From NCBI GenBank assembly GCA_965242865.1, contig CBDETK010000013.1, forward strand, positions 3,392,001 to 3,456,000: DNA of 64,000 bases, read 5' to 3'. This DNA is from Candidatus Latescibacterota bacterium (lineage in GTDB: Bacteria; Latescibacterota; UBA2968; UBA8231). Of this stretch, positions 9,237-59,540 are shown in pieces. How positions within the stretch are numbered: the first letter of the stretch is position 1; each line of letters begins with the position of its first letter. Position numbers and translations under genes: made by a program. A model generated the notes under the pieces. The model was given only the letters and a program-made list of their open reading frames with translations, was not told the origin of the DNA and made no database searches.

Positions 9237-9334
9237 CCGCGTCCACAATTGGGCGGTACAATAAAACCCTGGTCGAGCGACATTTGTCGTGCCGACTAGG
9301 GTTTTATTTTGCCTCAATCGCAATTCCCACCAAT

Positions 9335-10156: not shown

Positions 10157-10163
10157 GGCCGGC

Positions 10164-14024: not shown

Positions 14025-14174
14025 AGCCTCTCCTGCGTAAACCTGCGCTCTTGAAAAACATAAAGAACAGATGGCCTAGCCGCTACGAGCCAAGGGGTTC
14101 GCACGGTTCAACAGAGTCGTTATGTTCTCTATGTTCTCTGCTAGTCTGCGCCTTCTTGCCCCGGAGGTACGAGC

Positions 14175-16409: not shown

Positions 16410-16480
16410 TTTATGGCCTCTCACCGCGTACCTTATCCGCACTTGCCCACCCCTAACCCGCCTAACCCGCCGCCCTAGCC

Positions 16481-17695
16481 ATGATCGCCAAGCACGTATC
16501 CTGTCTGCTGCTGGCTGGCCTCACGGCCTGTAGCACCACCGAAGAGCAAGTCGTTGAGCTCCTAGAACAGATGGCCGCAAACCCAGTGGATTCGCCGGCC
16601 TATCAGCAATCCATCGACGAATTGGCCGCCATTGGTCGGCCGGCCGCCCGCCAGCTCATCGCCCGCCTCAACCCCGACCTGTACCGCGGCGAAAACTACC
16701 GCGAGTTCCGCGCCGAGCGGGAAAAACTCCGCATTGGTTGCGCCCGCGTGCTGGGCCGCATCAAGCCGCGCGGGGCTACGGCCGCCCTCAAGGATCGAAT
16801 CTCAACCGCGTACACCGATCGCGAGCGCATCGCCTGCCTGTGGGCCATGGGGCAAGTCGGCTACGTCCAAGCCGGCGTGGATGCGGCCAAAGCCCAGCTC
16901 GGAGATTCCAACCCCATCATCCGCATTCACGCGGCCATTGCCTTGCTCAAGATGGACGACGACCGCGGCACCAGCGAAATCGAAGCGGCTCTGGCCAGCA
17001 GCGACCCCCAGCTAACCCAAACGGCCCTGCAAGGACTGGAAGAATCCGGCTACTTCGGCGTCCCCCTGCTCGTGGACCTGCGCGCTCGCCCTGGCCCTCA
17101 TCGCGACGCACTGCGCTCGGTGATCGCCGAGGTCAAAGACCAACTCGTCGTCCAACTGGCGGACGAAGGCCCGGTCCACCGCCAGCGCGCCGCGCAAGCC
17201 CTCGGCTACATCGGCGACGAGGGCACCGCAGCCTCCTTGGCCGACCTGCTGGCCGACCCCAGCAATCAAGTGCGCTTTAGCGCGGCCGCGGCCCTAGCCA
17301 CCATGGGGCGCAGTCAGGGCATTGAATTCCTCTTTGAGGCCCTGCGCCATACCGACGCCATTCTCCGCGCCAATGCCGTCAAGTTTCTCACCGATGTCCA
17401 GCGACAATCCGGTGCCGTCGAAGCGCAGCTCATCGCGGCCCTTAGCGATGAGGATTCGCTCGCCCGGGCGGGTGCGGCCCAAGTCTTGGGCCAAGCGCGC
17501 GTTCAGTCCGCCTTTAGCGCCCTGCTCGCGGCCACCCTAGACGAGGTCGCCGATGTGCGGGCCAATGCCGCCATGGCCCTCGGGCACCTCGGCGGCGACC
17601 AAGGCCGCGCCCAACTCGAAAAGTTGCGCTACGACAGCGACGCCACTGTTTCCTACTACGCCGAGTGGGCCTTGGGCCAGCTCGGCCCGAGTTGA
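16481..17695 (+). CDS. HEAT-repeat lipoprotein
   Basis: Lipobox LTAC; repeated D.xxVRxxAAxALG units. Confidence 0.85.
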   Translation: MIAKHVSCLLLAGLTACSTTEEQVVELLEQMAANPVDSPAYQQSIDELAAIGRPAARQLIARLNPDLYRGENYREFRAEREKLRIGCARVLGRIKPRGATAALKDRISTAYTDRERIACLWAMGQVGYVQAGVDAAKAQLGDSNPIIRIHAAIALLKMDDDRGTSEIEAALASSDPQLTQTALQGLEESGYFGVPLLVDLRARPGPHRDALRSVIAEVKDQLVVQLADEGPVHRQRAAQALGYIGDEGTAASLADLLADPSNQVRFSAAAALATMGRSQGIEFLFEALRHTDAILRANAVKFLTDVQRQSGAVEAQLIAALSDEDSLARAGAAQVLGQARVQSAFSALLAATLDEVADVRANAAMALGHLGGDQGRAQLEKLRYDSDATVSYYAEWALGQLGPS

Positions 17696-40423: not shown

Positions 40424-43400
40424 TTACGTCAATAGTTGCTTTACCAACGTCTCTACTTGCTTACCTTCGCCCGATTGGGCGAGCCACCCGCGCAATTCGC
40501 GGCGGGCTACGGTCGTGCTGACCGTATCGCCGCGTTGCTTGTATAGGTTTTGCAACTGCTGCGCGGCCTCGCTTGCCGCCGCTTGGCCGGCGGTCGCAAT
40601 GTTCTGATGCAAACGGTTCGCTGCATCGTATTCCGGTATCGACAATTTCCACAGGTGCTTTTGCAAATGGCGCGCTCCAAACTGCCCCTTGGCCATCAAC
40701 GGTTTCGCCGTTTCATACAGGGTGCGGCTATTGATGATGGCGAGTACGTAATGGGCCTCTTGAAGGTCCTTGCAAGGTGCCCAGAATAACGTGTAGTCAA
40801 TTATAGCATCATGGGTATCTATAATCGCAGCCGTAGGTTGTCCTGAAGCAGTGTACACCACGCGAATGGGAACGCCCTTGTCATTCTTTCGCCATTCGAG
40901 TTGCGCCGAGAGTTTGCCATGATAGTCCAACCACTGTAGCAAGTTCTTGGGGTTGTTAGCCCCCTTATTCTGTTCCCATAGCATACTGACCTGCTGCCAC
41001 CGTCCCCGCATCCGCTGTTCCAACCCACCGAGATGAATGCCTCCCGTTCCATTAGCGTCCACAGGCAGTTCAGCGTCGTTTCGTTTTAAGGGCAAAAGGG
41101 CTTTCAGCGGTGTCAATGTCGCGTAGGGAACGACCGTCTCTCCCAAGTGAACGTCAAACAAGTGTGCTTTCTCTATGGTCTGCCCGGTGATGGCGGTCAG
41201 ATCGAGAGCCTTCCACGGTGCTTTGTCATTGCTACCTCGGCGCGGCTCCACCTTAACGGTTTGCGCGGCGCGAACAAGAGTGGTGCTCTCGACCTCATGT
41301 ACAAAGAAAAGACAGCGCGGCACAATGGAAGCTCCCTGCCGAAAGCGGTCCGCATAAGGCGATGTTCCACTGAGCGACGTGTCGGTAATAGCGATTTGCT
41401 CCCGCCGCACATCCTCCGCTCCGGTCGTCCCCTGCCATTGCTCAACCTCGTCGCTCAAGGGCGTCGCTTTGCCATTTTCACCCATCCACTCGGCAAACGC
41501 GACACAAGACGCAACCGGAAAAAACGTGTTGGGGTCGAGTTTTTCCAGATCCCACGCCGGTTTATAGCCAAAATTCACCGCCAAATCGCCCCATTGTCCC
41601 GTGCGCCACTTGGCGTACTGCCCAGTTTGCAGCGCACTGTGCGGCAACACCATGGCGATGACGCCGCCAATTCTCAGGTAGAGCGCGACGCTACGGGCAA
41701 AGAAAAGCCCGGCGACATCTTGATGCGTTGCGTAGCGACCTCCCTGCCAGATGTGATATAGCTCCTTGCTCTGCTGCACCAGCTTATCGCGCAACACGCT
41801 AGCGGTATTGCGATAATTCAGCCACGGCGGGTTGCCGACAATCACATCGACCTTGCGGCGGCTCAACGCCACCGGACGAACCAAGTTGCGCGTGTAATAC
41901 GCCCAGATGTGATTGCGCCCTTCGGCGTGTAAATCCTGCATGATCCCAATCGTCGTCGTTAACGTCTGTCGCTGGGCCGGGTCCATAATCCCATGATCGT
42001 CCAACGCAACGAGTGGATCATGGCCGCGCTCAATCGCATCGGCAATGTCGCTCATCAGCCGGTCAAACGTGTCGGCTTGCTCCACCAAGCGAATCGGGAA
42101 AATCAGCTTTTTGTCGAACTCATCGCCTTCCACCTCAATGCCTATATCGCCGCTGATAAACAAGTCGCCGGTTTGGTAGTGCAACTGCAAGGCGTCTCCC
42201 AAATACACGGGTATCGCTACGTTTCCCGCATACCCAGCGTTGGTAGCCGCTTCGAGGAGGGGCCGCGCGGCCATCACCCAAGCCGTGCGAGCGAGCCGCA
42301 CCGCCACCGGATGCACGTCAATACCCATCACCGCCTCGCGCAGCCGCTTCAATGCCTCTTTGGGATCCAGCGCCGCTTCTGTGGCCGCTTCGACAAAGTG
42401 GCGCACCGCCACGGCGACAAACGTGCCAGAGCCACAAGACGGGTCGAGAACCCGCTGGCCGAGCGGGTCTGTCACCACCTCCTGCACCATCGCCTGCGCC
42501 AGCCATTCCGGGGTATAATACTCGCCCAACTGGCGGCGTTCATCGGGCGGAATAATCGCTTCATACAAGGTTGCGGCGATGTCGGCCGGGGCTTCCTGCC
42601 AGTTAAAGCGGGCGACGTGCTCAGCCATCCGCGCAACGAGCCGCTCCCCACCCACTTCGGCCGGCCATGCAAAAAAATCGGACTCAATAATGTCTTGCAG
42701 GCCGGTGTCGTCGCGGAACTGCCGGCCGTAGAGCAAATCCGTTGGATCATTAGCGGCTCGTTCCCGAATATCGATGCCAAAGTACGCCTGTACCACCATG
42801 CCGATAACCATGCTCAGGTACGTGTGCCGGACAAACAGATCGTCTAGCTCGTCGGGCGTCCGAGCGATCTCGCCCAACGCCGCACGCAACAAGGTTTCCC
42901 ACAGACGGCACTTGACGCGGACGGTTTCGCGGTCTTTCGCCCCTTGGTAGAGCACGTTAAGGGCGTCAATATCCCGCCGATACAACGGGCTGTTCGGCCC
43001 AAAATTCTGCTCGACCTCAGTGCGCCGCGCTGGAATGTCGTCCTGCGTACCGATGACCTTGTCGCGCAGCCACTCGTACAAAAGCAGCCAGTCAGCCGCC
43101 GATTCTAGGGTAAAGCAATATGGCTTAGTCGCTTTGACCTCGCCGGCATTCGGCCAGCGCAGGAGCCAGTACCGCCCGTCTGTGAGAACGCCCATCCGCG
43201 CGCTCCGCTCATACGTCATGGATTCCGCCAAGTATTTATCCAACTGCTTCACATAGATTTCATTGGGACTAAAGCCGCCGGTCGTGCTGATGCGCTTCTT
43301 GATTTCGATAAACGTGTTGGACGCCTTCAAATCCACAGCGCGCACCGAGTGGCCCGATGGCGACACTTCCTCGGCGACTTCGTTTGCATCAACCAATCCC

Positions 43401-43531
43401 GTGCAGAGCAAAAAGTCCCGCACCGCACTCGTGATATTCGCCTCGGGTTCATTGTTGTCGTGCCGTTGCAGAATCGCCGCCGCTGCGTTCTCGTATCTCG
43501 GATCGTTGTAATCTAGTTGAGGCATAGTCAA
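40424..43531 (-). CDS. Type IIG-like fused restriction endonuclease-methyltransferase
   Basis: N-terminal VDL..FIEIK nuclease and LTDG motif; GEYYTP, LDPSCGSGTF (motif I), GNPPW (motif IV); long C-terminal TRD. Confidence 0.88.
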   Translation of the reverse strand: MTMPQLDYNDPRYENAAAAILQRHDNNEPEANITSAVRDFLLCTGLVDANEVAEEVSPSGHSVRAVDLKASNTFIEIKKRISTTGGFSPNEIYVKQLDKYLAESMTYERSARMGVLTDGRYWLLRWPNAGEVKATKPYCFTLESAADWLLLYEWLRDKVIGTQDDIPARRTEVEQNFGPNSPLYRRDIDALNVLYQGAKDRETVRVKCRLWETLLRAALGEIARTPDELDDLFVRHTYLSMVIGMVVQAYFGIDIRERAANDPTDLLYGRQFRDDTGLQDIIESDFFAWPAEVGGERLVARMAEHVARFNWQEAPADIAATLYEAIIPPDERRQLGEYYTPEWLAQAMVQEVVTDPLGQRVLDPSCGSGTFVAVAVRHFVEAATEAALDPKEALKRLREAVMGIDVHPVAVRLARTAWVMAARPLLEAATNAGYAGNVAIPVYLGDALQLHYQTGDLFISGDIGIEVEGDEFDKKLIFPIRLVEQADTFDRLMSDIADAIERGHDPLVALDDHGIMDPAQRQTLTTTIGIMQDLHAEGRNHIWAYYTRNLVRPVALSRRKVDVIVGNPPWLNYRNTASVLRDKLVQQSKELYHIWQGGRYATHQDVAGLFFARSVALYLRIGGVIAMVLPHSALQTGQYAKWRTGQWGDLAVNFGYKPAWDLEKLDPNTFFPVASCVAFAEWMGENGKATPLSDEVEQWQGTTGAEDVRREQIAITDTSLSGTSPYADRFRQGASIVPRCLFFVHEVESTTLVRAAQTVKVEPRRGSNDKAPWKALDLTAITGQTIEKAHLFDVHLGETVVPYATLTPLKALLPLKRNDAELPVDANGTGGIHLGGLEQRMRGRWQQVSMLWEQNKGANNPKNLLQWLDYHGKLSAQLEWRKNDKGVPIRVVYTASGQPTAAIIDTHDAIIDYTLFWAPCKDLQEAHYVLAIINSRTLYETAKPLMAKGQFGARHLQKHLWKLSIPEYDAANRLHQNIATAGQAAASEAAQQLQNLYKQRGDTVSTTVARRELRGWLAQSGEGKQVETLVKQLLT

Positions 43532-43540
43532 CCGCCGCCC

Positions 43541-43897
43541 CTAAAGGCTGCTTTTGCGAAATACCGCCGCCCGCTCGGCGTCCACGATTTCAGCGATCTG
43601 CTCCATCATCTCCACGTCATGCTCGTCGTACGATCCCTTTCCAAGTCGCACGCTTAGTTCTTGCCAAGCCTGCTGTTGCTCTCCTAGCTCATCTCGAAGG
43701 ATCAAGCGCAGGAATGCAGTCGAGAGATCGCGGTGCTCTTCGCTAGCCGCTACTTCCAACATCTTGGAGACCTTTTCGACCGCTGACGAGGGTGAGTCGC
43801 CCCGTGCGAGCTTGATCTGCATCAAGGCCTCATCTAAAAGCTCGGCGAGGTAGCTGATCGTGTTGTAGTAGCCCGATTGTAAACTTCGGTCGCTCAT
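43541..43897 (-). CDS. Hypothetical all-helical protein
   Basis: 118-aa ORF with SD AAGGAG, 9 bp upstream of the type IIG gene. Confidence 0.7.
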   Translation of the reverse strand: MSDRSLQSGYYNTISYLAELLDEALMQIKLARGDSPSSAVEKVSKMLEVAASEEHRDLSTAFLRLILRDELGEQQQAWQELSVRLGKGSYDEHDVEMMEQIAEIVDAERAAVFRKSSL

Positions 43898-43926: not shown

Positions 43927-44540
43927 GAAAGCTGTCTTAAAATCCGTTTTTCTTTCGATCAGCCTTGAAAGGACATACCCATGAATCGACCTTTAGGTTT
44001 CACCACAAAGCCTGAAAGGTGCGATATAATGAGTATGTCCCTCAATGAATATGCAATGGATTGGAAGGATGGACAATGACCGTTGCGGTCTCCCCTGCTG
44101 CTGGCTCGTGTTTGGCATCGGGGAGGCCAAGTCGTCCGTCATGCGATGTCCGCTTGATGGTCCATGGCCTTATGTACCGGGCTAAAACCGGCCGTGGCGG
44201 CTTTTGCCAGCCTCGTTTGGCTGTTGGAAGACGGGGTATGGTTACTTCAACCGTTGGCGACAACAAGGGCATTGGGAGCGGATATTGTATGCACTGATCC
44301 AGTAGGATTGAACCGACCCAGGCCGCCTTGCCACTCCGTCGGCGGGCATCGTGGATGCACAGAGTGTCAAAACGGCAATCCAAGGAAAAACCACTGGATA
44401 CGATAAAAAAAGATCAAGGGACGCAAACGGCATCTGCTAGTGGATACCCACGCCCCCCCCCTTGCATGTGTGGTAACCTTCGCATCGACCGCACCGACGT
44501 CGGGGGCCGACAGCTTGAAGGCCCTGTTGAGAAGCATTCT
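43927..44540 (+). mobile_element. IS5-family transposase pseudogene (3'-truncated)
   Basis: Left end GAAAGCTGTCTTAAAA; ATG 44029; across frames LMYRAKTG, WRLLPASFG.W...YGYFNRW, SAGIVDAQSVK, KIKGRKRHLLVDT. Confidence 0.85.
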
Positions 44541-44567
44541 TAAAATACAGCAACTGATGAATGTCGC

Positions 44568-44972
44568 CTATCGCCCGGCTATCCGTCTGATCCACTTGGG
44601 AACGAACCGCCAGAGGGACTTCCGTGCTTCGCCAAATTGCTGCGCTTTTTGGAAGCGGTCACGGGCTCGACCCTTCTCGATTTCGTCTTTGGAAAGGCGT
44701 CGAGCCCACCTCACTTGGTTACGATGAATCCAGTAATGAGATTGACAGTCGAAGTTCCAGTTTCCTATTGATGGATAGAGAGAAACGGACTTGCCATCGA
44801 ATGTCATTTGCCAGTCGGTTGGGTCCAGCGGCGTGACGACCTCACTCCCACATCCGCAGCAGCACCTATGTACAGCCGTAGCGAAGGGTATTGACACGTA
44901 CAATACTCCATCATCCAAGACATCTGGGATGTAGTCAACGAATTCGTGCTCAAGCGAGTTGACGCGAGTCAC
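44568..44972 (-). CDS. DUF6527-family Cys/His-rich protein
   Basis: FVDYIP..LDDGVLYVS, HRCCCGCGSEVVTPL, SLYPSIGNW, CQSHYWI. Confidence 0.85.
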   Translation of the reverse strand: MTRVNSLEHEFVDYIPDVLDDGVLYVSIPFATAVHRCCCGCGSEVVTPLDPTDWQMTFDGKSVSLYPSIGNWNFDCQSHYWIHRNQVRWARRLSKDEIEKGRARDRFQKAQQFGEARKSLWRFVPKWIRRIAGR

Positions 44973-46141
44973 GCTTGGTCCTGGTTGATCAGATTATTCC
45001 CGTCGATCTGGTAGTAACTCTCATTCTCTTTCTCAATATCGACGTAGAACCCGAGAAGTTTCTTCCACTTAATCACGGCTAGGGCCGCATTCAGTGCGTT
45101 AAGTTCAGCAATCTGGATGTTGCGTGAGTAGTCGTCTTCGCCATCGCCATCTGAAAGCGGGAGTGTTGAGTGGACATGGCCTCGTGCCTGCTCCGTACTC
45201 ACGGTTACTCTCAACTGGCCGAACAGCGAACCGTCAGTTTCGTCCACACCCATCCCCACATCGATGAATGGTACGCCGAACTCTTCCAGTTTCTCTACTA
45301 CAAGTTTCCTACTGTGCCCTTTGTCGACTGCTATGAACACGAAGTCCATTTGACGCAGGACATCAACCGTCGATTCATCGATATATTCGTGGACGGAGAT
45401 GTTACGCCGTATCTCAGAATAGATGTTTCCGAAATAGGCTGCTTTCAGCGGTGCGGTCTCCAGCGTCTCGACGGACGGCGCACCCGGCGAGCGGAACGCG
45501 TTATGCTGCCCAAACCTGTCACCGTCGAACAAGTGGATCTCCCTCACCGGGGTTTTTGCTACCAAGTCGAGTATGTATGAGCCAGTGCCACCCAGCCCAA
45601 CGATGGCGACTGCACCGACTTCTAGTTTTTCTGTGACAGCACCAATGCCAGCACGGCTTGATGCCGTATCGATGTACCTGAAGATCGAATCTTCATCCTG
45701 AGCTTCAGAGACGGCAAAGGTCCGAGCAGTGACGTTCGGGTCGATCGACTGGGCCGGCTCAGAAATAATGCCCTCGTAAGTGGTCATCTTGTCGTAGTAA
45801 TCAGAGTAGCCTCCCGATGGTTTACTCGAAAATTCGTGGTCGACTACCAATCCGGCTCCTAACTCCTGGCGTCCACTGGAAAGATGAATCTTTGTGAGTG
45901 GACGGCCTTCTTGGTTGCAAGGCATATCTCCAGTGAACATCACAACATGAGAGTCCGGCCTCACTGTGACATCACCTGCCAGAGTCAACTTTGAAACCAG
46001 AGTGCCGTACTTGATGATCCTACTTTCCGTAACGTACGGGATGTGCTTTAGAAGGAGATGGAGGGACCGCACCTCAACTTCGTAGCCATCGTCTTGGAGC
46101 CGCTTGAGGTCAGGGCTACGACTTATCAGTTGGTGTGACAT
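44969..46141 (-). CDS. DUF6791 (E2-like) - ThiF/E1-like adenylyltransferase fusion
   Basis: N-terminal DLKRLQDDGYEV..HIPYV, FSSKP, YYDKMTTY; ThiF motifs IVGLGGTGS, FDGD, HNAFR, AVD, FIDVGMG. Confidence 0.88.
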   Translation of the reverse strand: MSHQLISRSPDLKRLQDDGYEVEVRSLHLLLKHIPYVTESRIIKYGTLVSKLTLAGDVTVRPDSHVVMFTGDMPCNQEGRPLTKIHLSSGRQELGAGLVVDHEFSSKPSGGYSDYYDKMTTYEGIISEPAQSIDPNVTARTFAVSEAQDEDSIFRYIDTASSRAGIGAVTEKLEVGAVAIVGLGGTGSYILDLVAKTPVREIHLFDGDRFGQHNAFRSPGAPSVETLETAPLKAAYFGNIYSEIRRNISVHEYIDESTVDVLRQMDFVFIAVDKGHSRKLVVEKLEEFGVPFIDVGMGVDETDGSLFGQLRVTVSTEQARGHVHSTLPLSDGDGEDDYSRNIQIAELNALNAALAVIKWKKLLGFYVDIEKENESYYQIDGNNLINQDQA

Positions 46142-46382
46142 TGAATATCGTCCCGTCTTGGACTTTCACGCTCTCGCCCGCTTTGAGTCTTCCTTCTAGT
46201 GGCCGCCCTGCACCGTTCCTGTAGGTGACAGTTATGATGATATCTGGGCCCGAGGGAGGTGGGTCAAAAGCGATCCTCACCACCTGATCGAAGGAGAGTT
46301 CGTCATTAAGGGAGAGTTCGCTTGACGTGACGGTTTTCTCTCGTCCGTTCACGATTATCGTGATGGTACTCTTGTCTGTCAT
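46116..46382 (-). CDS. Multi-ubiquitin-domain (beta-grasp) protein, single domain, 88 aa
   Basis: IIVNGREKTV, LSFDQVV, TVTY, GESVKVQDGTIFNV, ends TDKS; SD AAGGAG. Confidence 0.85.
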   Translation of the reverse strand: MTDKSTITIIVNGREKTVTSSELSLNDELSFDQVVRIAFDPPPSGPDIIITVTYRNGAGRPLEGRLKAGESVKVQDGTIFNVTPTDKS

Positions 46383-46420
46383 CGTCAGACTCCTTTCGAT
46401 TGTTTCACAAGATGTTGACA

Positions 46421-46486
46421 GTACCAACTCCGGTACGTTTATATAGGATAACCTATTGCCCACCTCTTGTCAATAGATGGTACAAT
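46421..46486. promoter_or_regulatory. Overlapping divergent promoters between the Ubl operon and HTH-ImmA genes
   Basis: Minus: TTGACA (46473-46468) - 17 bp - TATCCT (46450-46445); plus: extended -10 TGGTACAAT (46478-46486); palindrome GTACC-N6-GGTAC at 46421-46436. Confidence 0.6.
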
Positions 46487-46513
46487 GTTTCGTTTCTAAT
46501 ACAGGAGAAGGAC

Positions 46514-46984
46514 ATGAACAGAGGCAAACTTGAGCTCAGCGACCTAGGACGCCTTGTCTTGGACGAGCGGAATCGGCGAGGGATGAGTCTCCGTGAAGCG
46601 GCATCTGAAACCGGAATCCCCTTCAACACCTTGGCGCGCGTCGAGAAGGGGCATGTCCCCGACCTTCCTAAGTTCAAGAGACTCGTTGAGTGGTGTGGGG
46701 CCGACATCAAGCAATTCTTTGAACTCCAAGAAAAGGTGGCGGCTACCACGGACCTGATTGCAGAGCATCTTCAGGCCGACCGCAACCTCCCTCCTGAAGC
46801 AGCCGAACAGATAGCAGGTATCGTCCGAGAGCTCTATCAGGTGCTGGTACGCCCCCAAGAAGTCTGTGCGGCACATCTGCGAGCCGCGAAGACATTCCGG
46901 CCAGACGCGGCTCGCGCTCTAGGGACGCTGCTCAACGATCTGAATAAAGCACTGATAGAGGAAATCACTGATGGCCCTGCGTAG
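46514..46984 (+). CDS. XRE-family HTH transcriptional regulator
   Basis: MSLREAASETGIPFNTLARVEKGHVPD; SD AGGAG; ATG 46514. Confidence 0.88.
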   Translation: MNRGKLELSDLGRLVLDERNRRGMSLREAASETGIPFNTLARVEKGHVPDLPKFKRLVEWCGADIKQFFELQEKVAATTDLIAEHLQADRNLPPEAAEQIAGIVRELYQVLVRPQEVCAAHLRAAKTFRPDAARALGTLLNDLNKALIEEITDGPA

Positions 46985-47549
46985 AGGGTTTAAGTCCGAA
47001 GCCGAGGAAATCGCGAAACGCGTACGAGCAGAACTTGGAATGAGTGCCGCTCAGTCGGTCGCACCAGAAGTGCTCGCCGAGCTACTAGGCATTGAGATCC
47101 GAGCGGGAGACGAGTTGATCGCACGCGAAAGATTCGTCGAACTCAAACAGATTCAGCACGATGCCTTCTCGGCGTGTACGTTTCGGCCTTCGGCTGATCG
47201 TGTGGTCGTTGTATACAACCCTCTTTCCGCCAAGTCGCGCCGAAGGAGCGATCTAGCGCATGAGATTGCACATATCCTTCTTGACCACGAATTAAGCCGG
47301 ATTGAAACGCTTGGTGATGTTACGTTCCTCTCGTGTGATGCGATTCAGGAGGAAGAAGCTGTCTGGCTGTCCGGCTGCCTCCTCCTACCCCGGGCATTGC
47401 TCTTGGCGGAAGTCCGTAGGGGGTCAAACGAGAAAGAAATCGCAAGGAAATGTGGAGTTAGCGAAAACATGGCTCGGTACAGGTTGAACGTCACTGGCGT
47501 GGTCAAACAGAATCAGGCATTCCTGAAGAAGAGCCGCTCCCCACGATAG
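46971..47549 (+). CDS. ImmA/IrrE-family metallopeptidase
   Basis: RRGFKSEAE, RRRSDLAHEIAH (HExxH), QEEEA..LSGCLLLP. Confidence 0.92.
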   Translation: MALRRGFKSEAEEIAKRVRAELGMSAAQSVAPEVLAELLGIEIRAGDELIARERFVELKQIQHDAFSACTFRPSADRVVVVYNPLSAKSRRRSDLAHEIAHILLDHELSRIETLGDVTFLSCDAIQEEEAVWLSGCLLLPRALLLAEVRRGSNEKEIARKCGVSENMARYRLNVTGVVKQNQAFLKKSRSPR

Positions 47550-47718: not shown

Positions 47719-47753
47719 GGTACAAATTTCAAGTGTAATTTGAAATCTGTACC
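47719..47753. promoter_or_regulatory. 14-bp-arm inverted repeat, candidate operator of the AAA_14 gene
   Basis: GGTACAAATTTCAA-N7-TTGAAATCTGTACC, one mismatch. Confidence 0.6.
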
Positions 47754-47790
47754 AATTCTTTTATCTTGTCCCCAAGTGGCATCGACGCGA

Positions 47791-48966
47791 ATGGAGCCTA
47801 AAACCGTGATTTTGCGACAAATCGTCCGAGAATTGGCCGCGACGGCAGCCGAATTTCCCGTGGTGACCATCATCGGCCCGCGGCAAGCGGGAAAAACCAC
47901 GTTGGCGCGGATGCAGTTTCCCAACCACGCGTACGCGAACCTCGAAGCACCCGAGGTGCGCCGGCTGGCGGTAAGCGATCCCCACGCTTTCTTCTCGCAA
48001 TTTCCCCCGCCCGTTATCATCGACGAAATTCAGCGCGTACCCGAGCTGCTCTCAACCATCCAAGTCCTCGCGGACAGCAGCCGGCAACGCGGGCAATACA
48101 TTCTCACCGGCAGCCACCAATTGCGTCTGCAAGAAGCCGTTGCCCAATCCCTCGCCGGACGCACGGCTCTCTTGCGCCTGCTGCCCTTGTCGATAGCAGA
48201 ACTCAAAGCAGCCCGCATCACCCACACGCGCGACGAATTGATCTATCAGGGCTTTATGCCGCGCCTGTACAGCGAAAAAGTCAATCCGACGCGCCTGTAC
48301 CGAAATTACTGTCAAACCTATATCGAGCGCGACATTAGGCAAATGATCCACCTCAGGAGCCTGACCGACTTTGAGCACTTCACGCGCCTGCTCGCCGGAC
48401 GCGTCGGTCAGGTTTTGAATCTGAGTTCGCTGGCCAACGACGTGGGGGTGTCGAGCACCACGCTCAAAGAATGGCTCTCGGTGCTCGAAGCGTCGCACAC
48501 CATTTTTAGGTTGAAGCCCTATTTTGAAAACTTTGGCAAACGCATCGTCAAATCGCCAAAAATCTATTTTACCGAGGTCGGGCTGGCGTCCTACTTGCTC
48601 GGCATTGAATCGCCCGCGCTGGCGGCCCGCGATCCCCTGATCGGCAATCTCTTTGAAAACATGGTCGTCATCGAAGCCTTGAAAGCCAGACTCAACGCAG
48701 GAAAAGAGCCTGAACTCTACTTTTACCGCGACAACAAAGGCCACGAAGTGGATCTGTTGTTCCGGCAAAACAGGCAGTTAATCCCCATTGAAATCAAATC
48801 GGCCATGACGTTTAATCCAGAATTTGCCCAAGGAATCGCCCAGTTCCAGAAAATCGCGTCCTCCACGCAGCAAGGCTACGTCCTTTACGCCGGCCAGCTC
48901 ACCCCGGAACTGTCCCATGCCAGCGTGCGGCATTTTACCGACGTGGATACCATCTTTCCCCGCTGA
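47791..48966 (+). CDS. AAA_14 ATPase with DUF4143 (PD-(D/E)XK-like) domain
   Basis: GPRQAGKTT, IDEIQR, LTGS, SLAGR, YIERD, KSPKIY, LFEN, EVD, IEIKS. Confidence 0.9.
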   Translation: MEPKTVILRQIVRELAATAAEFPVVTIIGPRQAGKTTLARMQFPNHAYANLEAPEVRRLAVSDPHAFFSQFPPPVIIDEIQRVPELLSTIQVLADSSRQRGQYILTGSHQLRLQEAVAQSLAGRTALLRLLPLSIAELKAARITHTRDELIYQGFMPRLYSEKVNPTRLYRNYCQTYIERDIRQMIHLRSLTDFEHFTRLLAGRVGQVLNLSSLANDVGVSSTTLKEWLSVLEASHTIFRLKPYFENFGKRIVKSPKIYFTEVGLASYLLGIESPALAARDPLIGNLFENMVVIEALKARLNAGKEPELYFYRDNKGHEVDLLFRQNRQLIPIEIKSAMTFNPEFAQGIAQFQKIASSTQQGYVLYAGQLTPELSHASVRHFTDVDTIFPR

Positions 48967-49050: not shown

Positions 49051-51975
49051 TTGATCTGCGACGCCGAGGGTATCGCCGAGCACATCCGCTTTCTCAAACG
49101 CCGCATCTTGGGCCATGAGGTCGTCCATCACCAGACCTTGCCGGCGCGGCCGGCGCGCCTAGTCCGCGACGTATCGAGCCTGCCGCCGGCCCTAGCCCGC
49201 ATCCTCGAAATCGCCCGCATTCCCGCGCTCTATACGCACCAAGCCGAGGGCATCCAAAAAGTGCTCGCCGGCCAGCACTTGGCCATGGCCACGCCCACGG
49301 CTTCGGGTAAGACCTTGGTGTACAACGCACCCGTACTGACCACATTGCTCGACGACCCAGCCGCGCACGCGCTCTACATCTTCCCGCTCAAGGCCCTAGA
49401 GCAGGATCAGTTCGACGAGTTAAGCGGCCTAATGCAGGGCTTGGGCGGCGCGTTGCAAGCGGCTATTTACGATGGCGACACCCCCGCCCACCGCCGTCGG
49501 CAAATTCGCACCAAGCCGCCGCAGGTGCTCTTCACCACGCCGGACATGCTGCACTCGGGCATCCTCGCCTTCCACGAGGCTTGGGCCGGTTTTTTCGCTC
49601 GCCTGCGCTTTGTGGTCATCGACGAATTGCACGCGTACAGCGGCGTCTTTGGCTCCCACGTGCTGCACCTTTTTCGCCGCTTGAACCGCATCTGCGCCCA
49701 CTACGGGGCCGATCCCGTGTACATCACCAGCTCGGCGACGATGGGCAATCCCCGCGAGCTGGCGGGCGAGCTGCTCAACCGCTCCTTTTGCGCGATTGAG
49801 GACCACGGCGCGCCGGCCGCAGCGCGCCACTTCGTGTTCGTCAACCCAAGCGAAAGCCCCAACACCCTCGCGGCGCACGTGTTGCGGGCCAGCGTGCTCA
49901 GGGACTACCGCACGATAGTCTTTACCCGCGCCCGCATCACCACCGAGCTCGTGTACCGCTGGGCCACCCAGAGCCGCCCAGACTTGCGGGAGCAAATCTC
50001 CTCGTATCGCGCTGGCTATTTGCCCGGCGAGCGCCGCCAGATTGAGCAGGCTCTCAACGCCGGCGAGCTCAAGGGCGTGGTGGCCACGTCGGCCTTGGAG
50101 TTGGGCATTGACATCGGCGGCTTGGATATTTGCGTGTTGGTTGGGTATCCCGGGTCGATCATCAACACTTGGCAGCGCGCCGGCCGCGTGGGGCGGGCGG
50201 GCCGCGAGTCCCTAATCCTCCTCATCGCGTCGCCCGACGCGCTCGACCAGTATTTTATGCGGCACCCGAGGGAATTTTTTGCCCGCGATTTAGAGGACGC
50301 CGTAGTGGACCCGACGAATCAGTACATCCTCAAAAACCACCTCGCGTGTGCCGCGCGCGAGCTGCCCCTCGCGGCCGGCGAACCCGAGTACGCGCTGCCC
50401 AACTATCGGGCGACCATTGACGCGCTAACCGAGGAAGGGGTGCTGCTGCAGAATGCCGAGGGCGACGCTTGGTTTGCCGCCCGCAAGCAGCCGCACCGCT
50501 TGGTCAACATGCGCACCATCGGGGAGTCGTATCGCATCGTCGATCGCGACCACAACCCGATCGGCACGGTCAGCGGCGGCCAAGTGTATGGCGAGTGCTA
50601 CAAGGGCGCGATTTACCTGCATCGCGGCCGCCAGTACGAGATCGGCGATCGCCATCCCCAGCAGGGCCAGATTTACGCCGAGGAAGTACACGTGACGTAC
50701 TTTACCCGCGCCCGCACGGAAAAGGACACCGAGATATTAGAGGAATTGCGCTCGCGGCCGTTGCCGGGCTTTATGGCGCGGCTGGGCCGGCTCAAGGTCA
50801 GCTCGCAAGTGGTGGGCTACGAAAAGATCCGCGTCGGCGACCAAGTCGTCCTCAGCAAACACCCCCTAGAGTCGCCGGTGGAGCACGTTGAGACCGTCGG
50901 CTTCTGGATCGAACTCGACGCCCACTTCAAGGCCGACCTCAGCCGCCACCAATACCACTACATGGGCTCGATCCACGCCATTGAACACGCCGTGAAGTCG
51001 CTTTTCCCGCTGCTGGCCTTGTGCGACCGCACGGATGTCGGCGGAATTTGCTATCCCCAGCACCCCCAGCTCGGCAAGGGCGCGATTTTCGTGTACGACT
51101 ATCACCCCGGCGGCATTGGCCTCGCAGAAAAGGGCTTTGCCCAGCTCGACCGCCTCTTGGACCTGACGCGGGCCCTGGTCGAAACCTGCGATTGCCCGCT
51201 CGGCTGCCCCTCTTGCATTCACTTTCCCACCTGCGGCGCGGGCAACGTTCCCCTCGACAAGGCCGGCGCGATCCACCTGCTCGGCGTGCTCACGGGCCGC
51301 CGGGCCATTGAGCACGCGCCGGCCCCAGCCGAGGTCGCAGACGCCCCGCCGCTGTTCGCCGCGTGGGAAGAACGAGAAAGCGCGGCCGACGAGCCGCCCG
51401 AGCAAGGCCCGCACGTGGTCGTGTTCGACCTCGAAACCCAGCGCTCGGCCGCCGAAGTCGGCGGCTGGAACAAAGCCTACATGATGGGCATGTCGGTCGG
51501 CGTGGTGTGGGACAGCCGCGAGCAGGTTTGCACCTCGTATTTTGAGCAAGACATGGACCGGCTCTTAGCACACTTACAGGCGGCCGATTTGATCGTCGGC
51601 TTCAACATCGTGGGCTTTGACTATTCGGTCTTGCGCGGGTACAGCCCATTCGACTTCCGCCAGCTCAACACGCTCGATATTCTGCGCGAGGTTCACCAGC
51701 GGCTGCGCTACCGAGTGAGCCTCGACGCACTCGGCCGGGCCACGCTCGACGCGCCGAAGAGCGCCGATGGGCTCGACGCGCTTAGGTGGTTCAAACAGGG
51801 GCGGCTGGACTTGATTGCCGAGTACTGCCAAAAGGACGTAGAACTGACCCGCGACCTGTTCTACTTTGGGCTGCGCGAAAACTACCTGCTCTTCGACCGC
51901 AAAAACGAGGGCCGAATGCGCATTCCGATCGCGTGGAAGTTGGAGGAGCTGGTGCGCCGAGGGCAGGCACTCTGA
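49051..51975 (+). CDS. DEAD/DEAH helicase with DUF1998 Zn domain fused to an RNase H-like DEDDy exonuclease (MrfA-MrfB/SftH-like)
   Basis: TASGKT, DELH, SAT, ALELGIDIG, QRAGRVGR, CDCPLGCPSC; C-terminal FDLET, FNIVGFD, YCQKDV. Confidence 0.92.
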   Translation: MICDAEGIAEHIRFLKRRILGHEVVHHQTLPARPARLVRDVSSLPPALARILEIARIPALYTHQAEGIQKVLAGQHLAMATPTASGKTLVYNAPVLTTLLDDPAAHALYIFPLKALEQDQFDELSGLMQGLGGALQAAIYDGDTPAHRRRQIRTKPPQVLFTTPDMLHSGILAFHEAWAGFFARLRFVVIDELHAYSGVFGSHVLHLFRRLNRICAHYGADPVYITSSATMGNPRELAGELLNRSFCAIEDHGAPAAARHFVFVNPSESPNTLAAHVLRASVLRDYRTIVFTRARITTELVYRWATQSRPDLREQISSYRAGYLPGERRQIEQALNAGELKGVVATSALELGIDIGGLDICVLVGYPGSIINTWQRAGRVGRAGRESLILLIASPDALDQYFMRHPREFFARDLEDAVVDPTNQYILKNHLACAARELPLAAGEPEYALPNYRATIDALTEEGVLLQNAEGDAWFAARKQPHRLVNMRTIGESYRIVDRDHNPIGTVSGGQVYGECYKGAIYLHRGRQYEIGDRHPQQGQIYAEEVHVTYFTRARTEKDTEILEELRSRPLPGFMARLGRLKVSSQVVGYEKIRVGDQVVLSKHPLESPVEHVETVGFWIELDAHFKADLSRHQYHYMGSIHAIEHAVKSLFPLLALCDRTDVGGICYPQHPQLGKGAIFVYDYHPGGIGLAEKGFAQLDRLLDLTRALVETCDCPLGCPSCIHFPTCGAGNVPLDKAGAIHLLGVLTGRRAIEHAPAPAEVADAPPLFAAWEERESAADEPPEQGPHVVVFDLETQRSAAEVGGWNKAYMMGMSVGVVWDSREQVCTSYFEQDMDRLLAHLQAADLIVGFNIVGFDYSVLRGYSPFDFRQLNTLDILREVHQRLRYRVSLDALGRATLDAPKSADGLDALRWFKQGRLDLIAEYCQKDVELTRDLFYFGLRENYLLFDRKNEGRMRIPIAWKLEELVRRGQAL

Positions 51976-52015
51976 CCTACCGAAGGAAATTGTTACCATT
52001 AAGCAGGAGGAAGAT

Positions 52016-52258
52016 ATGGAAGCTCTTATACAGAAATGGGGCAATAGTTTGGCTCTGCGTATTCCTCAATCGCTCGCTACCCAGATTGGGATTGAACCCA
52101 ATTCACCAGTCGAATTGTCGCTTCGCGGTGCAGAATTGATCATTGCGCCTGTGAGTACGCCCGGTTTGAAACTGGACGACCTTTTAGCTCAAGTAACCGA
52201 GGACAACTTGCACGGCGAAATAGATACCGGACAGGCGGTGGGTGCGGCGATCCATTAA
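52016..52258 (+). CDS. MazE/AbrB-family antitoxin, no adjacent toxin
   Basis: IQKWGNSLALRIP, LDDLLAQVTEDNLHGEIDTG; SD AGGAGG. Confidence 0.88.
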   Translation: MEALIQKWGNSLALRIPQSLATQIGIEPNSPVELSLRGAELIIAPVSTPGLKLDDLLAQVTEDNLHGEIDTGQAVGAAIH

Positions 52259-56225: not shown

Positions 56226-57182
56226 CTAACTGGTATCGCAACACTCAGTTCTTGAATTACCAGATGCTATTTGTATGGCACCGTTTTTCTTTTGATACTC
56301 AAAAGTATCAAGCAAGAATTTACATATTGTAGATACTGAATTTACCGCTAGCTCGGCATGATGCTTCGCCGGTTTATATGATCTTGGATGAGCATCGCTC
56401 ATTTTATTACGTATAGATGCTATACCTGAAACAATTGTTACTATTCCTCTTAGTAACTGTTTCAGGCTATCAGAAATATCTTTACGATCTGGGTCTAAGT
56501 TTAGCAATCTCTGAACTCGCTTGTATAGTTGGTTTATGTTACCATCATATTTTTGACTATCAGATGTAATTTGAAGCTCAATATACTGTAAAACTGACTC
56601 TAATAGAGACCTAGAATTTGTAATTGCACCATCATAGTCAGATGACTCAATTTTGCTTTTACACTTAGAAATCTGCTCTCTTATAAAATCGATATTAGGT
56701 GCATTGTTATTAAGAATTGCATGTTCAATTACTATAATGTCTTTATCTAAAGAAATTAGTCTATACTTATTTGACTCTAAAGTTAATTTATATCCATCGT
56801 ACTCTAAGTACTGGTTTATATAATCAACAGCTTCCTCAACAGAAAAATCTGTACCGAAGAAATTCCTTGGGTCAACGGCATTTTCAATTAGGTCCTTAAA
56901 GACTGTTTTGCCGTTCAGTTCAGCTAATCGATGTTGCGTGTACTGCCATCTGGAAGGAAATCCTTGACCATATTCATCATATTCACCATGCTGATTAAAG
57001 TAGTCAACCAAGTCTGGGCCAGAACGATAAGGTGCAAAGGATCGCCCAGAAGGAATTTTATCACCAGTGATTAGTTTCTCGAGAGCTTCTATCGTCTCAC
57101 GAACTACTTTAACGTTATTCAATTTCGCATCCTTTGTCTCTGTGACACATAACTCTAACAAGGAATTATACTGCGTACTCAC
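56226..57182 (-). CDS. Abortive infection protein (AbiJ-like N-terminal domain + Abi_C domain)
   Basis: YRSGPDLVDYFN, GFPSRWQY, YDGAITNSRSLLE, IRNKMSDAH (HEPN-like RxxxxxH); start may be TTG 57122; AT-rich. Confidence 0.82.
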   Translation of the reverse strand: MSTQYNSLLELCVTETKDAKLNNVKVVRETIEALEKLITGDKIPSGRSFAPYRSGPDLVDYFNQHGEYDEYGQGFPSRWQYTQHRLAELNGKTVFKDLIENAVDPRNFFGTDFSVEEAVDYINQYLEYDGYKLTLESNKYRLISLDKDIIVIEHAILNNNAPNIDFIREQISKCKSKIESSDYDGAITNSRSLLESVLQYIELQITSDSQKYDGNINQLYKRVQRLLNLDPDRKDISDSLKQLLRGIVTIVSGIASIRNKMSDAHPRSYKPAKHHAELAVNSVSTICKFLLDTFEYQKKNGAIQIASGNSRTECCDTS

Positions 57183-57256
57183 TAGCGTAGCAGATTCTTA
57201 GTTTTTTTCATAATATACTTTGATTTATAAAGAGTGGACAAGATCTCTAAACCAAA

Positions 57257-58336
57257 TCATATAAATTCCCGCAGATTAATCTTCTTCATTTCTTTCTTAA
57301 TGTATGTCAAGCTCTGACTATTGGATAAATCCAGTATGGGATGCTTAAAGCCAATTTTTTCCTTTAATATCTCTGCTACTTCTTTAGTCCAGTGAGTCAT
57401 ACTCATTTGAACGATATCACCATTAATTTTTTTGGCCATTTCGGATATTCGACTGCCTTCGCCGATTCTATCTACTAGAATGATTGTTGACATATAATGT
57501 AATTGTCTGCCAAATTCCATTTCTTTTTCAAATCTAGATACTTTATCCAATGAGATTTCCGTATTTCCTGGTCCAATAAAGCCAATATCGAATCGTACAC
57601 CAACTCCTGGCTTGTATAAAAGAGTAGCATCACTCTCTCGTTTTTCTCCTCTGTCAGATAGCCAGAAAACTTTGTTGATCTCGTCAGTGTTTTTGGAATC
57701 AATTTTTTGAAATCCTAATAATGACAGCAAAGACCCCAATAGAAGTTTCTCGAATAACTTACCGTACATTGATTTTTCTGATCCTCTGATTGCTAGAGTT
57801 TGAGTACCAATCGCAGCAAAAAGATAAAGAATGAAGAGCCAACTTACTTTACAATCTATGTCTCGAATCTTCAAATAGCCTTCGAGTTCTCCATAGTCAA
57901 CCTTACATTTATTCGCAGATTGTTTAAGGGATTCCTCAAGATCATTGAGGTAATTATCAAACTCGTCACTTTCACTTCTCAGCACATTCTGGATACTTTT
58001 TTCCGTTAGTCCAATACACCATTGCAAAAATAATTTCTTTTCATTTGAAATGTCTGAGTTTAGCTCCATTTTTACAATCTCTGGAAGTTTATCGACAAAA
58101 TTCTCGATACCGTGACTGGATTTAAGAAATGTTGTAAATAGTGCTGCGTTTGAAAGCGTCAACCTTCTCCTAGTCAATCCTTCAGTTAGGGAACGGATGT
58201 TTCCTCCGCATAGTACAGAGGTGACAACTTCCTTGATTATATCCTCGCCAATCCTATCAATTACTTCAACTCCTTTGTATTTGGCGAGTGCCTCACCTAT
58301 ACGGGGGATATTTTTCGATATTTTCTCGTAGGTCAT
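57257..58336 (-). CDS. CfrBI-family type II restriction endonuclease
   Basis: IRGSEKSMYGKLFEK, RESDATL, VRFDIGFIGPGNTEISLDKVSRF; AT-rich; ATG 58336. Confidence 0.8.
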   Translation of the reverse strand: MTYEKISKNIPRIGEALAKYKGVEVIDRIGEDIIKEVVTSVLCGGNIRSLTEGLTRRRLTLSNAALFTTFLKSSHGIENFVDKLPEIVKMELNSDISNEKKLFLQWCIGLTEKSIQNVLRSESDEFDNYLNDLEESLKQSANKCKVDYGELEGYLKIRDIDCKVSWLFILYLFAAIGTQTLAIRGSEKSMYGKLFEKLLLGSLLSLLGFQKIDSKNTDEINKVFWLSDRGEKRESDATLLYKPGVGVRFDIGFIGPGNTEISLDKVSRFEKEMEFGRQLHYMSTIILVDRIGEGSRISEMAKKINGDIVQMSMTHWTKEVAEILKEKIGFKHPILDLSNSQSLTYIKKEMKKINLREFI

Positions 58337-58349
58337 TTGTCTTTCCAGT

Positions 58350-59540
58350 TCAGAATTCGATGTAATACTTGACGGATGAGACTGGTTCACAGTTTATCCA
58401 ATTCACGTCTTCAATTTCTCTCTGTAGCCAACTCTCGATATTCCTCTTAATTTCATCAATATAGTCTTCATTGATCTCAAATAATGCAAACCGTCTGTTT
58501 AGTTTAGCAGCCGCTTCCCCTACTGTGCCAATGCCGGCAAAAGGATCGAGGATAACATCGTTCTTGAATGAATAGTATCGAATCACTTTCTCTGCAAGTT
58601 CTAGCGGGAATATCGCGGGATGCTTTTTACTATGAGCAGGATGTATTTTCCAGATATTCGTCACTTCATAGCCATCTTCAACTCGAGATTCGTCAACTAT
58701 GTTTTGATCCGGGTGTTTTCTGATATGCCAATCTATCAATTTATTCGTTTTTTTTCGATAGACTAAAACATATTCTGTTACAGGTACGGCCTTGTACTGT
58801 AACGGATTCCTATCAGCCGCAAACCTTCTGCCCCGCCCCGTTGCCCAACCAGCCCCTTCCGGTTTCACCCATATAATGTCATCAATAAACTCAAATCCTT
58901 CCTCAACAAAAATTCTGTGAAAATCAAAAGGGACGGCTATTCTTTTAGAAGACTCACTTCGGCTTGCACGACGAATCAACACTGGTGATATATTTATGAC
59001 AAAAAATCTACCTTCGCTTAAAACTCTATGGCACTGGTGTATTATTTTTTTCATCTTGAGCAAATATTCATCGTATTGAATATAATCAGAATACTCGGGC
59101 CGGGCGTTATAGTAGGGTGGAGAAGTAAAGACAAGATCTATAGATTCAGAAGGTGTCTGCAAAAGCAACTCCTCACTGTCTCCCCAACCAACCGTATTTC
59201 TCAATTTTGAAACTTTGGGTACTTCTGTTTTTTTTCGCTTCTTAGTTGTACCATTTGTACGGCCGAGCAACCTCGCCTCTAAAATATCCCTTTGCGTTGT
59301 CTTTTTTTCTTGTATCAAGCTCGTATAAGCATCAATCACAATTTCGCCTACCTTATAGCTATCTTTACCTTTCAGGGGCACTCGCCAGATATGATAGCGA
59401 TCATCTACTTCTGGAAGTCCAAACTGAATCGCATTGTCGAGATCAATATCTTTTAGATAATTCACAGAAACTCTCTTCGCGTCCTCGACATTTTTTACGC
59501 GATAATTTCGTCTATCATAGACTGTCGATTTCTGTAGCAT
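58350..59540 (-). CDS. Beta-class N4-cytosine DNA methyltransferase
   Basis: TSPPY (motif IV) before HPAIFP and DPFAGIGT (motif I); about 110-aa N-terminal extension. Confidence 0.92.
   Translation of the reverse strand: MLQKSTVYDRRNYRVKNVEDAKRVSVNYLKDIDLDNAIQFGLPEVDDRYHIWRVPLKGKDSYKVGEIVIDAYTSLIQEKKTTQRDILEARLLGRTNGTTKKRKKTEVPKVSKLRNTVGWGDSEELLLQTPSESIDLVFTSPPYYNARPEYSDYIQYDEYLLKMKKIIHQCHRVLSEGRFFVINISPVLIRRASRSESSKRIAVPFDFHRIFVEEGFEFIDDIIWVKPEGAGWATGRGRRFAADRNPLQYKAVPVTEYVLVYRKKTNKLIDWHIRKHPDQNIVDESRVEDGYEVTNIWKIHPAHSKKHPAIFPLELAEKVIRYYSFKNDVILDPFAGIGTVGEAAAKLNRRFALFEINEDYIDEIKRNIESWLQREIEDVNWINCEPVSSVKYYIEF

Follow-up and report, generated by a model that had tools for sequence, protein, structure and literature searches.

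A probable Type II Bub operon facing a CapH/CapP-like gene pair in a Candidatus Latescibacterota genome

What is the compact cassette in which a ubiquitin-like conjugation operon faces a helix-turn-helix (HTH) repressor gene and a zinc peptidase gene in the genome of a Candidatus Latescibacterota bacterium: an undescribed immunity system or a further example of a pathway that already has a name? The cassette occupies positions 44568-47549 (2,982 bp) of the window, by which we mean the whole 64-kb stretch of contig CBDETK010000013.1 (assembly GCA_965242865.1) that was analyzed. The evidence below indicates that it is very probably an intact, horizontally acquired Type II Bub operon (formerly 6E.2/DUF6527) with a repressor/protease switch. 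Both the system with its chemistry and the connection to HTH/peptidase regulators are already in the published literature, and the locus is a further example rather than a new system. It makes three small additions to the published picture, which are the near-universal terminal serine of Type II BubA, a conserved operator, and a peptidase switch that lacks a GAF domain. The cassette comprises the following features (E values are those of Pfam matches).

44568-44972, minus strand: bubE, encoding 134 amino acids from a GTG start; DUF6527 (1.6e-26)
44969-46141, minus strand: bubBD, encoding 390 amino acids; DUF6791 (4.9e-60, residues 10-159), then ThiF (2e-12, matched residues 170-301)
46116-46382, minus strand: bubA, encoding 88 amino acids from an ATG with an AAAGGAG Shine-Dalgarno sequence 7 nt ahead; Multi_ubiq (7.3e-13); the protein ends in NVTPTDKS
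46383-46513: divergent control region, 131 bp between the two divergent start codons
46514-46984, plus strand: capH-like gene for an XRE-type HTH repressor of 156 amino acids with a helical C-terminal region; HTH_3 (2.3e-6)
46971-47549, plus strand: capP-like gene for an M78 zinc peptidase of 192 amino acids; Peptidase_M78 (1.7e-18)

All five open reading frames (ORFs) were uninterrupted and full length in comparison with their relatives, as judged from the ORF list and a check of starts, stops, and junctions. The genes are tightly packed, with overlaps of 26 nt between bubA and bubBD, 4 nt (GTGA) between bubBD and bubE, and 14 nt between the HTH and peptidase genes. The mechanically called bubA ORF of 115 amino acids, which starts from a GTG at position 46463, is probably too long. 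An initial annotation, made from the letters of the DNA, had described five genes around a shared divergent promoter region of 131 bp and had read them as a conjugation operon of a ubiquitin-like protein (Ubl), an E2, and an E1 facing an HTH and IrrE-like protease switch. Layout, coordinates, gene calls, and general idea all proved correct, and the hidden Markov model check that it had suggested, once run against Pfam, returned the families listed above.

The operons once called 6E or DUF6527 were renamed Bub by Ye, Gong, Chambers, and Corbett (bioRxiv 10.1101/2024.11.21.623953; Ye et al. below), whose main text defines Type II by BubA (the Ubl), BubBD (an E2-E1 fusion), and BubE (DUF6527), typically without a JAB peptidase. 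The same gene set and order are seen here, with Multi_ubiq, DUF6791 plus ThiF, and DUF6527 on three overlapping minus-strand genes, and a Pfam scan detected no Prok-JAB domain in any of nine window proteins. Every defining feature of Type II Bub that could be tested was found at the locus. The initial annotation had remarked on the lack of a JAB peptidase; it is indeed absent from the scanned proteins, but this is the norm for Type II, because BubE is itself the deconjugating Ser/His protease. According to the main text of Ye et al., the Ubl is passed from a tyrosine oxyester on the E1 crossover loop to a serine oxyester on the E2 in a cysteine-free pathway, and in the Type II system of Escherichia coli ZDHYS365 the substitutions R219A, Y342F, and S106A each abolished the BubA-BubA conjugate in vitro. 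In their description, BubE removes BubA-target conjugates and is a serine protease that combines a Ser/His dyad with a C4 zinc site. The ATP-dependent conjugation and its reversal by BubE have been demonstrated with the E. coli and Citrobacter proteins only. The statement that no function had been demonstrated for DUF6527 operons is thus out of date, and the proposed novelty fails by the annotation's own standard, an exact match to an already characterized system, since Type II Bub is such a match.

It is accordingly very unlikely that the locus represents an undescribed conjugation-based immunity system, as had been proposed. What speaks for that proposal is the state of the profile collections: PADLOC v2.0.0 (2023) holds no model for BubA or BubE, and its E1-E2 (Cap2) models give only weak matches to BubBD, confined to the adenylation domain (2.6e-7 at best), while NCBIfam NF004805, which BubBD matches with 569 bits against a cut-off of 352, is named merely "hypothetical protein." The term "DUF6791" had no occurrence in the full-text literature searched. 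The family has nevertheless been named and biochemically characterized, with the same gene order and catalytic residues, and a homologous BubA structure is available in the Protein Data Bank (PDB).

The identification as Type II Bub is carried foremost by the catalytic residues of BubBD. Among 1.84 billion cluster representatives searched, 2,092 matched at E≤0.001 and 574 at E≤1e-30; the window protein was aligned with 143 of the best 150 of these 2,092 representatives, after seven outside the range of 370 to 420 amino acids had been dropped (n = 144). Equivalence to E. coli BubBD residues rests on family-wide conservation and on the numbering in two representatives, which carry Ser, Arg, and Tyr at exactly positions 106, 219, and 342 of the published E. 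coli protein, rather than on a direct alignment. On this basis, the E2 serine S105 (matching S106) lies in an F-S-x-K-P motif and is Ser in 142/144 sequences and Cys in the other two. The counterparts of the published E2 lysine and histidine are K107 (130/144) and H65 (144/144). The E1 adenylation arginine R217 (matching R219) is invariant, and the crossover-loop tyrosine Y338 (matching Y342) is kept in 141 of the 144, with a Tyr one column off in two of the three exceptions. C75, the sole cysteine of the window protein, is retained in 99/144, so there is no conserved catalytic cysteine. The two representatives in which Cys replaces the E2 serine (P0170 and P0197) keep the histidine, arginine, and tyrosine and may represent natural variants that use a thioester in what is otherwise an oxyester pathway.

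BubA consists of a single beta-grasp domain (Ubl_1) and aligns with the crystallized Ubl of E. coli ZDHYS365 (PDB 9cd2), with which it shares the C-terminal TDKS. Among 79 homologues, the end of Type II BubA follows the consensus N-V-T-x-T-D/N-K/R-S, with a terminal Ser in 77 of them, Ala in the remaining 2, and Gly in none. The phrase "C-terminal serine" is absent from the main text of Ye et al. Given this near-universal serine, Type II E1 and BubE may recognize a different C-terminal chemistry. Overall, the locus resembles the ZDHYS365 operon in its three genes and their order, the lack of JAB, the Ser, Lys, and His of the E2, the E1 Arg, the Tyr, the C4 and Ser/His residues of BubE, and the TDKS end of BubA; it differs in that the E. 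coli BubA carries three beta-grasp domains (222 amino acids) and the present one a single domain.

Since the E1 domain belongs to the ThiF family and gives weak NCBIfam ThiF matches of about 27 to 30 bits, far below the cut-offs, one might ask whether the genes encode a ThiF/MoeB-type sulfur-carrier or cofactor pair, in which the beta-grasp protein would carry a thiocarboxylate instead of modifying proteins. We consider this extremely improbable. An E2-like domain whose Ser/Lys/His site is conserved is joined to the E1; the Ubl terminates in Ser instead of Gly-Gly; BubBD contains a single, nonconserved Cys; no rhodanese domain and no conserved Cys were seen; and the neighbors are a restriction-modification (R-M) gene, an insertion sequence (IS) relic, and an ATPase gene. 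The cassette is also low in guanine-plus-cytosine (GC) content and mobile, and the homologous E. coli proteins make protein conjugates in vitro.

For the third protein of the putative Bub operon, BubE, an alignment was built from the window and 77 of 80 related loci, three over-long open frames having been dropped (n = 78). S68, C76, and H79 were present in 78/78 sequences and C37, C39, and C41 in 77/78, a pattern that was also seen in a second alignment (A2). From these residues, BubE is predicted to be a protease with an S68/H79 dyad, a C4 zinc site formed by C37, C39, C41, and C76, and a C-terminal amphipathic helix. Its AlphaFold2 model (pLDDT 93.6) shows eight strands followed by a helix at residues 95 to 132; it had no fold match in the PDB at E≤0.001, and a PDB sequence search gave no match at E≤10. 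The model thus agrees with the published description of BubE as an eight-strand fold with a hydrophobic extension and without structural homologues (Ye et al., main text).

Next, the distribution of the cassette was analyzed. A word-index search gave at least 8,000 relatives at E≤1e-5 (8,000 of 8,000 scored candidates), the best at 97% identity. With one genome per species, 467 stretches encode a relative, of which 80 loci were surveyed, and partner genes were scored there by phmmer with the window proteins as queries. BubA accompanies BubBD at 79 of the 80 loci and BubE at all 80, and with these queries the M78 peptidase was detectable at 22/80 and the HTH homologue at 15/80. The nine closest cassettes among these loci come from metagenome-assembled genomes of Dehalococcoidia, Acidimicrobiia, and other Chloroflexota, with 62 to 77% BubBD identity. 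What they have in common with the window is precisely the five genes of the cassette (44571-47546) and, over 37-55 kb, nothing else; the unit that moves is therefore the 3-kb cassette as a whole. Of 24 other genomes of the genus that were searched, just 2 encode a full-length BubBD relative (48% identity). The GC fraction of the cassette is 0.529 versus 0.652 and 0.638 in the flanks, which hold metabolic genes. A blastn comparison of the operon with 5,426 complete E. coli genomes gave no DNA similarity.

The cassette could, in principle, be silent or decaying cargo, its genes intact by chance and no longer functional in this host, and an IS relic does abut it. We regard this as highly improbable, since none of the five ORFs is truncated in comparison with relatives, no conserved position of the catalytic, zinc, or operator sites has been lost, and the C-terminal helix of BubE ends as it does in relatives.

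The second half of the identification, the repressor/protease switch, concerns the plus-strand gene pair, which sits at the predicted bub promoter and diverges from bubA. Such pairing has been described: CapH and CapP genes lie beside 168 of 544 Bub operons, and CapW/BrxR genes lie beside 43 (Ye et al., main text). The repressor gene is present in all nine close cassettes, and in the eight that were aligned its homologues (74 to 83% identity) hold the same divergent position. In the peptidase, the zinc-site residues H97-E98-x-x-H101 and E127 are conserved in 21 aligned homologues, all of them 165 to 218 amino acids long. Its AlphaFold2 model (pLDDT 91.6) is all-helical after residue 124, forming an HTH-like helical domain. 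The best fold match of the model was CapP of Thauera sp. K11 (PDB 7t5t; E 2e-4, TMq 0.52, TMt 0.38), and the second best was IrrE (PDB 3dti; E 5e-4). The PADLOC capP profile also matched (3.6e-10), covering profile positions 11 to 149 of 242 only. PDB sequence searches returned no match at E≤0.1 for the peptidase and two weak HTH matches only for the repressor.

The locus resembles CBASS loci with CapH and CapP (E. coli MS115-1 and Thauera sp. K11) in having an HTH repressor and a HExxH peptidase beside an immune-type operon, and the active-site numbering of E. coli CapP (H97/E98/H101) is identical to that of the window peptidase. The architecture, in contrast, is not that of canonical CapP, a protein of 288 amino acids with a peptidase domain (1-141), an HTH-like domain (142-182), and a GAF domain (182-288), as given in the preprint of Calloji et al. 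(2026). The window peptidase lacks the GAF domain, and its chain stops after the HTH-like helices. In CapP, single-stranded DNA (ssDNA) binds in a groove between the peptidase and GAF domains, with three of the five residues tested lying in GAF, and in IrrE, too, GAF builds one wall of the groove that binds ssDNA (Calloji et al. 2026 preprint). With the GAF domain missing, this groove cannot form as described. The active-site loop differs as well. Between H101 and E127, 25 residues form a hairpin in the model and contain C122-D123; C122 is kept only in ten close sequences among the aligned homologues and is not at the position of the CapP loop cysteine, 114. A cysteine-switch loop over the active site is reported for one third of CBASS CapPs.

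The predicted complex of the peptidase with the repressor reached an ipSAE of 0.69, compared with 0.01 for the best of three controls; 58 of 80 solved complexes attained this level, as did 2 of 110 mismatched pairs, a calibration that is approximate since our own alignments were used. Contact agreement between runs was at least 87%, and partner pLDDT was at least 74. The predicted interface involves peptidase residues 44 to 81 and the HExxH residues on one side and repressor residues 120 to 151 on the other, which supports binding of the peptidase to the C-terminal region of the repressor, at the level of a structural model. This docking on the upper surface and active site of the peptidase would be similar to that proposed for CapP. 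No solved complex of CapP with CapH is known to us; should there be one, part of the high score could stem from the training of the model.

The window repressor is longer than CapH, and its C-terminal extension is missing from more distant homologues. Within the extension, and inside the predicted interface, a T-F128-R129-P motif is kept in eight of nine aligned close-clade sequences, the window included. The cut of E. coli CapH has been mapped to F82|R83 (Lau et al. 2022 preprint), and by likeness to it we infer a possible cleavage site at F128-R129.

Other repressors cleaved by M78-family peptidases are known from ImmR/ImmA of the element ICEBs1 and from DdrO/IrrE of Deinococcus. IrrE differs from the window peptidase in carrying a GAF domain; ImmA is a short peptidase without GAF, controlled through RecA or RapI. 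No tRNA gene was found in the window, and none of the three tyrosine-integrase matches of the genome falls within it; with neither gene present, the locus is not the immunity region of an integrative and conjugative element or a prophage. An alternative view is that the HTH and M78 genes happen to adjoin the operon and are not its dedicated regulator, being instead either a generic module of mobile elements (ImmR/ImmA type) or a repressor/antitoxin pair. The short, GAF-less peptidase would fit such a module, as would a weak NCBIfam match to "spr1629 family repressor/antitoxin" (2.6e-7; 30 bits versus a cut-off of 335), PADLOC RmrA matches, and the detection of the pair at the minority of related loci counted above. 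However, the pair accompanies bubA, bubBD, and bubE in all nine close cassettes as part of the only DNA that these share, a conserved palindrome lies on the predicted bub promoter, CapP itself is the best fold match, and the pairing is published for Bub operons. We therefore judge a merely adjoining module to be unlikely and favor a dedicated switch of the Bub operon.

This palindrome lies in the divergent control region. In an alignment of ten intergenic regions (the window and nine related cassettes), conserved blocks of the 131 bp are found solely at the -35 hexamer, the palindromes, and the Shine-Dalgarno sequences. The elements are as follows.

46445-46473, minus strand: predicted bub promoter, TTGACA (46473-46468), a spacer of 17 nt, and TATCCT (46450-46445), with 10/12 matches in a consensus scan
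46421-46436: candidate operator palindrome GTACCAACTCCGGTAC (GTACC-N6-GGTAC), directly downstream of the bub -10, where it covers the expected start site
46479-46491: second operator-like site (inverted repeat I3), GGTACA-n-GTACC in the aligned relatives; here just the GGTAC half is intact

The bub -35 sequence TTGACA is retained in nine of the ten cassettes, and the palindrome directly follows a TTGACA on the plus strand (46415-46420). GTACC-N6-GGTAC occurs once in the window and in the same place in all nine loci with a close HTH homologue; it is thus present in 10/10 cassettes, with one further match in the 1,104,029 bases of the 80 loci.

The data above show the gene content, the conserved residues, the operator, the co-inheritance of the five genes, and a predicted interface between peptidase and repressor, whereas the chemistry, the direction of regulation, the inducing signal, and the biological role of the cassette are inferred. 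The mechanism proposed below is modeled on the homologous systems of E. coli ZDHYS365 and Citrobacter. The E1 half of BubBD would adenylate the C-terminal carboxylate of BubA, here that of a serine, by means of R217. BubA would then move to the crossover-loop tyrosine Y338 as an oxyester and next to S105 of the E2, flanked by K107 and H65, as a second oxyester. Finally, it would be joined to lysines of target proteins with no cysteine involved. BubE, with its S68/H79 dyad and zinc-binding cysteines, would bind the BubA C terminus, cleave conjugates, and thereby restrain the pathway. At the control region, a dimer of the HTH protein would bind the palindrome that overlaps the predicted bub start site and repress the bub operon, probably together with its own gene. 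The zinc peptidase would bind the C-terminal helices of the repressor and cleave it, leading to derepression. The biological role is probably an antiphage or stress response.

Several points weigh against this account. Published BubE activity in vitro is very weak, and the main text of Ye et al. reports no Bub operon that protected E. coli from phage; according to the main text of PMC13373217, there was still no phage-protective Bub operon as of June 2026. In the main texts searched, no target protein or phage phenotype was found for any Bub operon. The score of the peptidase-repressor complex is the confidence of a model and not a measurement. A consensus scan of the intergenic region gave no plus-strand promoter for the HTH gene, so autoregulation of that gene is only likely. 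Moreover, since the peptidase has no GAF domain, the DNA-damage signal cannot simply be carried over from CapP, and the label "damage-inducible," which the initial annotation had given to the system, is not secured. It is conceivable, if on balance doubtful, that the GAF-less peptidase and the long repressor, with its C-terminal T-F-R-P extension and GTACC-N6-GGTAC operator, form a separate CapH/CapP-like class with a trigger other than groove-bound ssDNA; in that case, this widely transferred cassette would respond to a signal that has yet to be described for Bub operons, and the terminal serine of Type II BubA would be a linked point.

As an example of Type II Bub, the cassette is clean and minimal, with a one-domain Ubl in a five-gene 3-kb unit and relatives across very different phyla. 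It could serve open questions about Bub, such as the targets of BubA, a role in phage defense, and the signal of a GAF-less CapP-type peptidase, and the conserved operator is a ready handle for reporter and binding assays.

Comparison with more distant systems helps to delimit this assignment. Type I Bub operons (6E.1), such as BubAB-BubCD-BubE of Citrobacter sp. RHBSTW-00271 (PDB 9ea4), share the cysteine-free E1/E2 chemistry and the BubE protease, and the E1 domain of Type I BubCD is weakly similar to the window BubBD (E 6.5e-4). Type I differs in its Ubl-E2 and JAB-E1 fusions, in the terminal Gly of BubA, and in the His and Asp beside the E2 serine. The Bil system (BilABCD) and Cap2/Cap3 of Type II CBASS are alike in placing bacterial E1/E2-based conjugation in defense contexts. 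Unlike the window operon, both use catalytic cysteines and a JAB peptidase; the E1 and E2 of Bil are separate proteins, and Cap2 conjugates a cyclase and not a Ubl. No cyclase is encoded at the window locus.

A second Bub operon, this one of Type I, is found in the same genome at positions 8559-11409 (minus strand) of another stretch (L003; G000:C13:1116000-1134000). It encodes a Multi_ubiq Ubl of 241 amino acids, a Prok-E2_E protein, a JAB-ThiF fusion of 464 amino acids, and a DUF6527 protein of 120 amino acids. BubA and BubB are unfused: BubA ends in QQGHG before a stop codon, which the ATG of the E2 gene overlaps (ATGGTTAA). The gene itself thus supplies the terminal Gly, even though the JAB domain is retained. 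Upstream of this operon, at a distance of about 2.7 kb and after an ORF containing Sigma70_r4, a plus-strand gene (14109-17537) encodes a protein of 1,142 amino acids with an N-terminal, IrrE-like Peptidase_M78 domain, a UvrD helicase, and a C-terminal PD-(D/E)XK nuclease.

In the window, the Type II cassette lies within a lower-GC stretch of about 12 kb (0.573) between metabolic genes. The principal neighbors are listed here.

40424-43531: type IIG R-M gene (PADLOC REase_MTase_IIG, 3e-66)
About 44047-44565, plus strand: relic of an IS5-family transposase gene, ending three bases from the 3' end of bubE; it marks the cassette boundary and is not part of the system
47740-48966, plus strand: AAA_14 plus DUF4143 ATPase gene (PADLOC candidate PDC-S01, 5e-99)

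Besides the R-M gene and this ATPase gene, the 12-kb stretch holds a gene for a DEAD/MZB helicase and a MazE-like ORF. The initial annotation had placed a type IIG R-M gene and an IS5 relic next to the operon, and both are present; its phrase "defense island" is a fair description of the surroundings, but none of those genes travels with the cassette. The relic, which has in-frame stops and frameshifts by tblastn, covers approximately residues 30 to 204 of a 295-amino-acid DUF4096 plus DDE_Tnp_1 transposase that is intact elsewhere in the genome, and its DNA is 64 to 67% identical to six other places in the genome.

Both Bub loci of the genome adjoin an AAA_14 plus DUF4143 ATPase gene (the other at L003 7120-8331, minus strand), and the genome contains 27 DUF4143 matches. 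As a hidden Bub partner, this ATPase was rejected: a homologue was found in the flanks of 0/80 loci, which points to an island coincidence. An ORF for 118 amino acids (orf118; 43541-43897, minus strand) was likewise rejected as a cassette gene, with no family match at E≤0.01 and a homologue at 0/80 loci. It precedes the type IIG R-M gene by 9 nt, in the same orientation, and could be a small partner or controller of that gene.

The helicase gene (49051-51975, plus strand) encodes a DEAD/DEAH protein of 974 amino acids with an MrfA zinc-binding (MZB) domain and, at its C terminus, a domain like those of RNase H and exonucleases (RNase_H_2, 3.4e-4, slightly short of the cut-off); NCBIfam TIGR03817 matched with 679 bits, below its cut-off of 874. 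The protein resembles a fusion of an MrfA helicase with an MrfB-type exonuclease. The ORF at 51866-52258 (plus strand) contains a MazE/AbrB-type antitoxin domain (8.8e-11); no recognizable toxin gene follows it, and the next ORF, of 77 amino acids, has no family match. Finally, 9 kb from the Bub cassette, a second defense islet at 56226-59540 (minus strand; GC 0.37 to 0.44) encodes an Abi_C protein, a CfrBI-like restriction endonuclease, and an N4/N6 DNA methylase.

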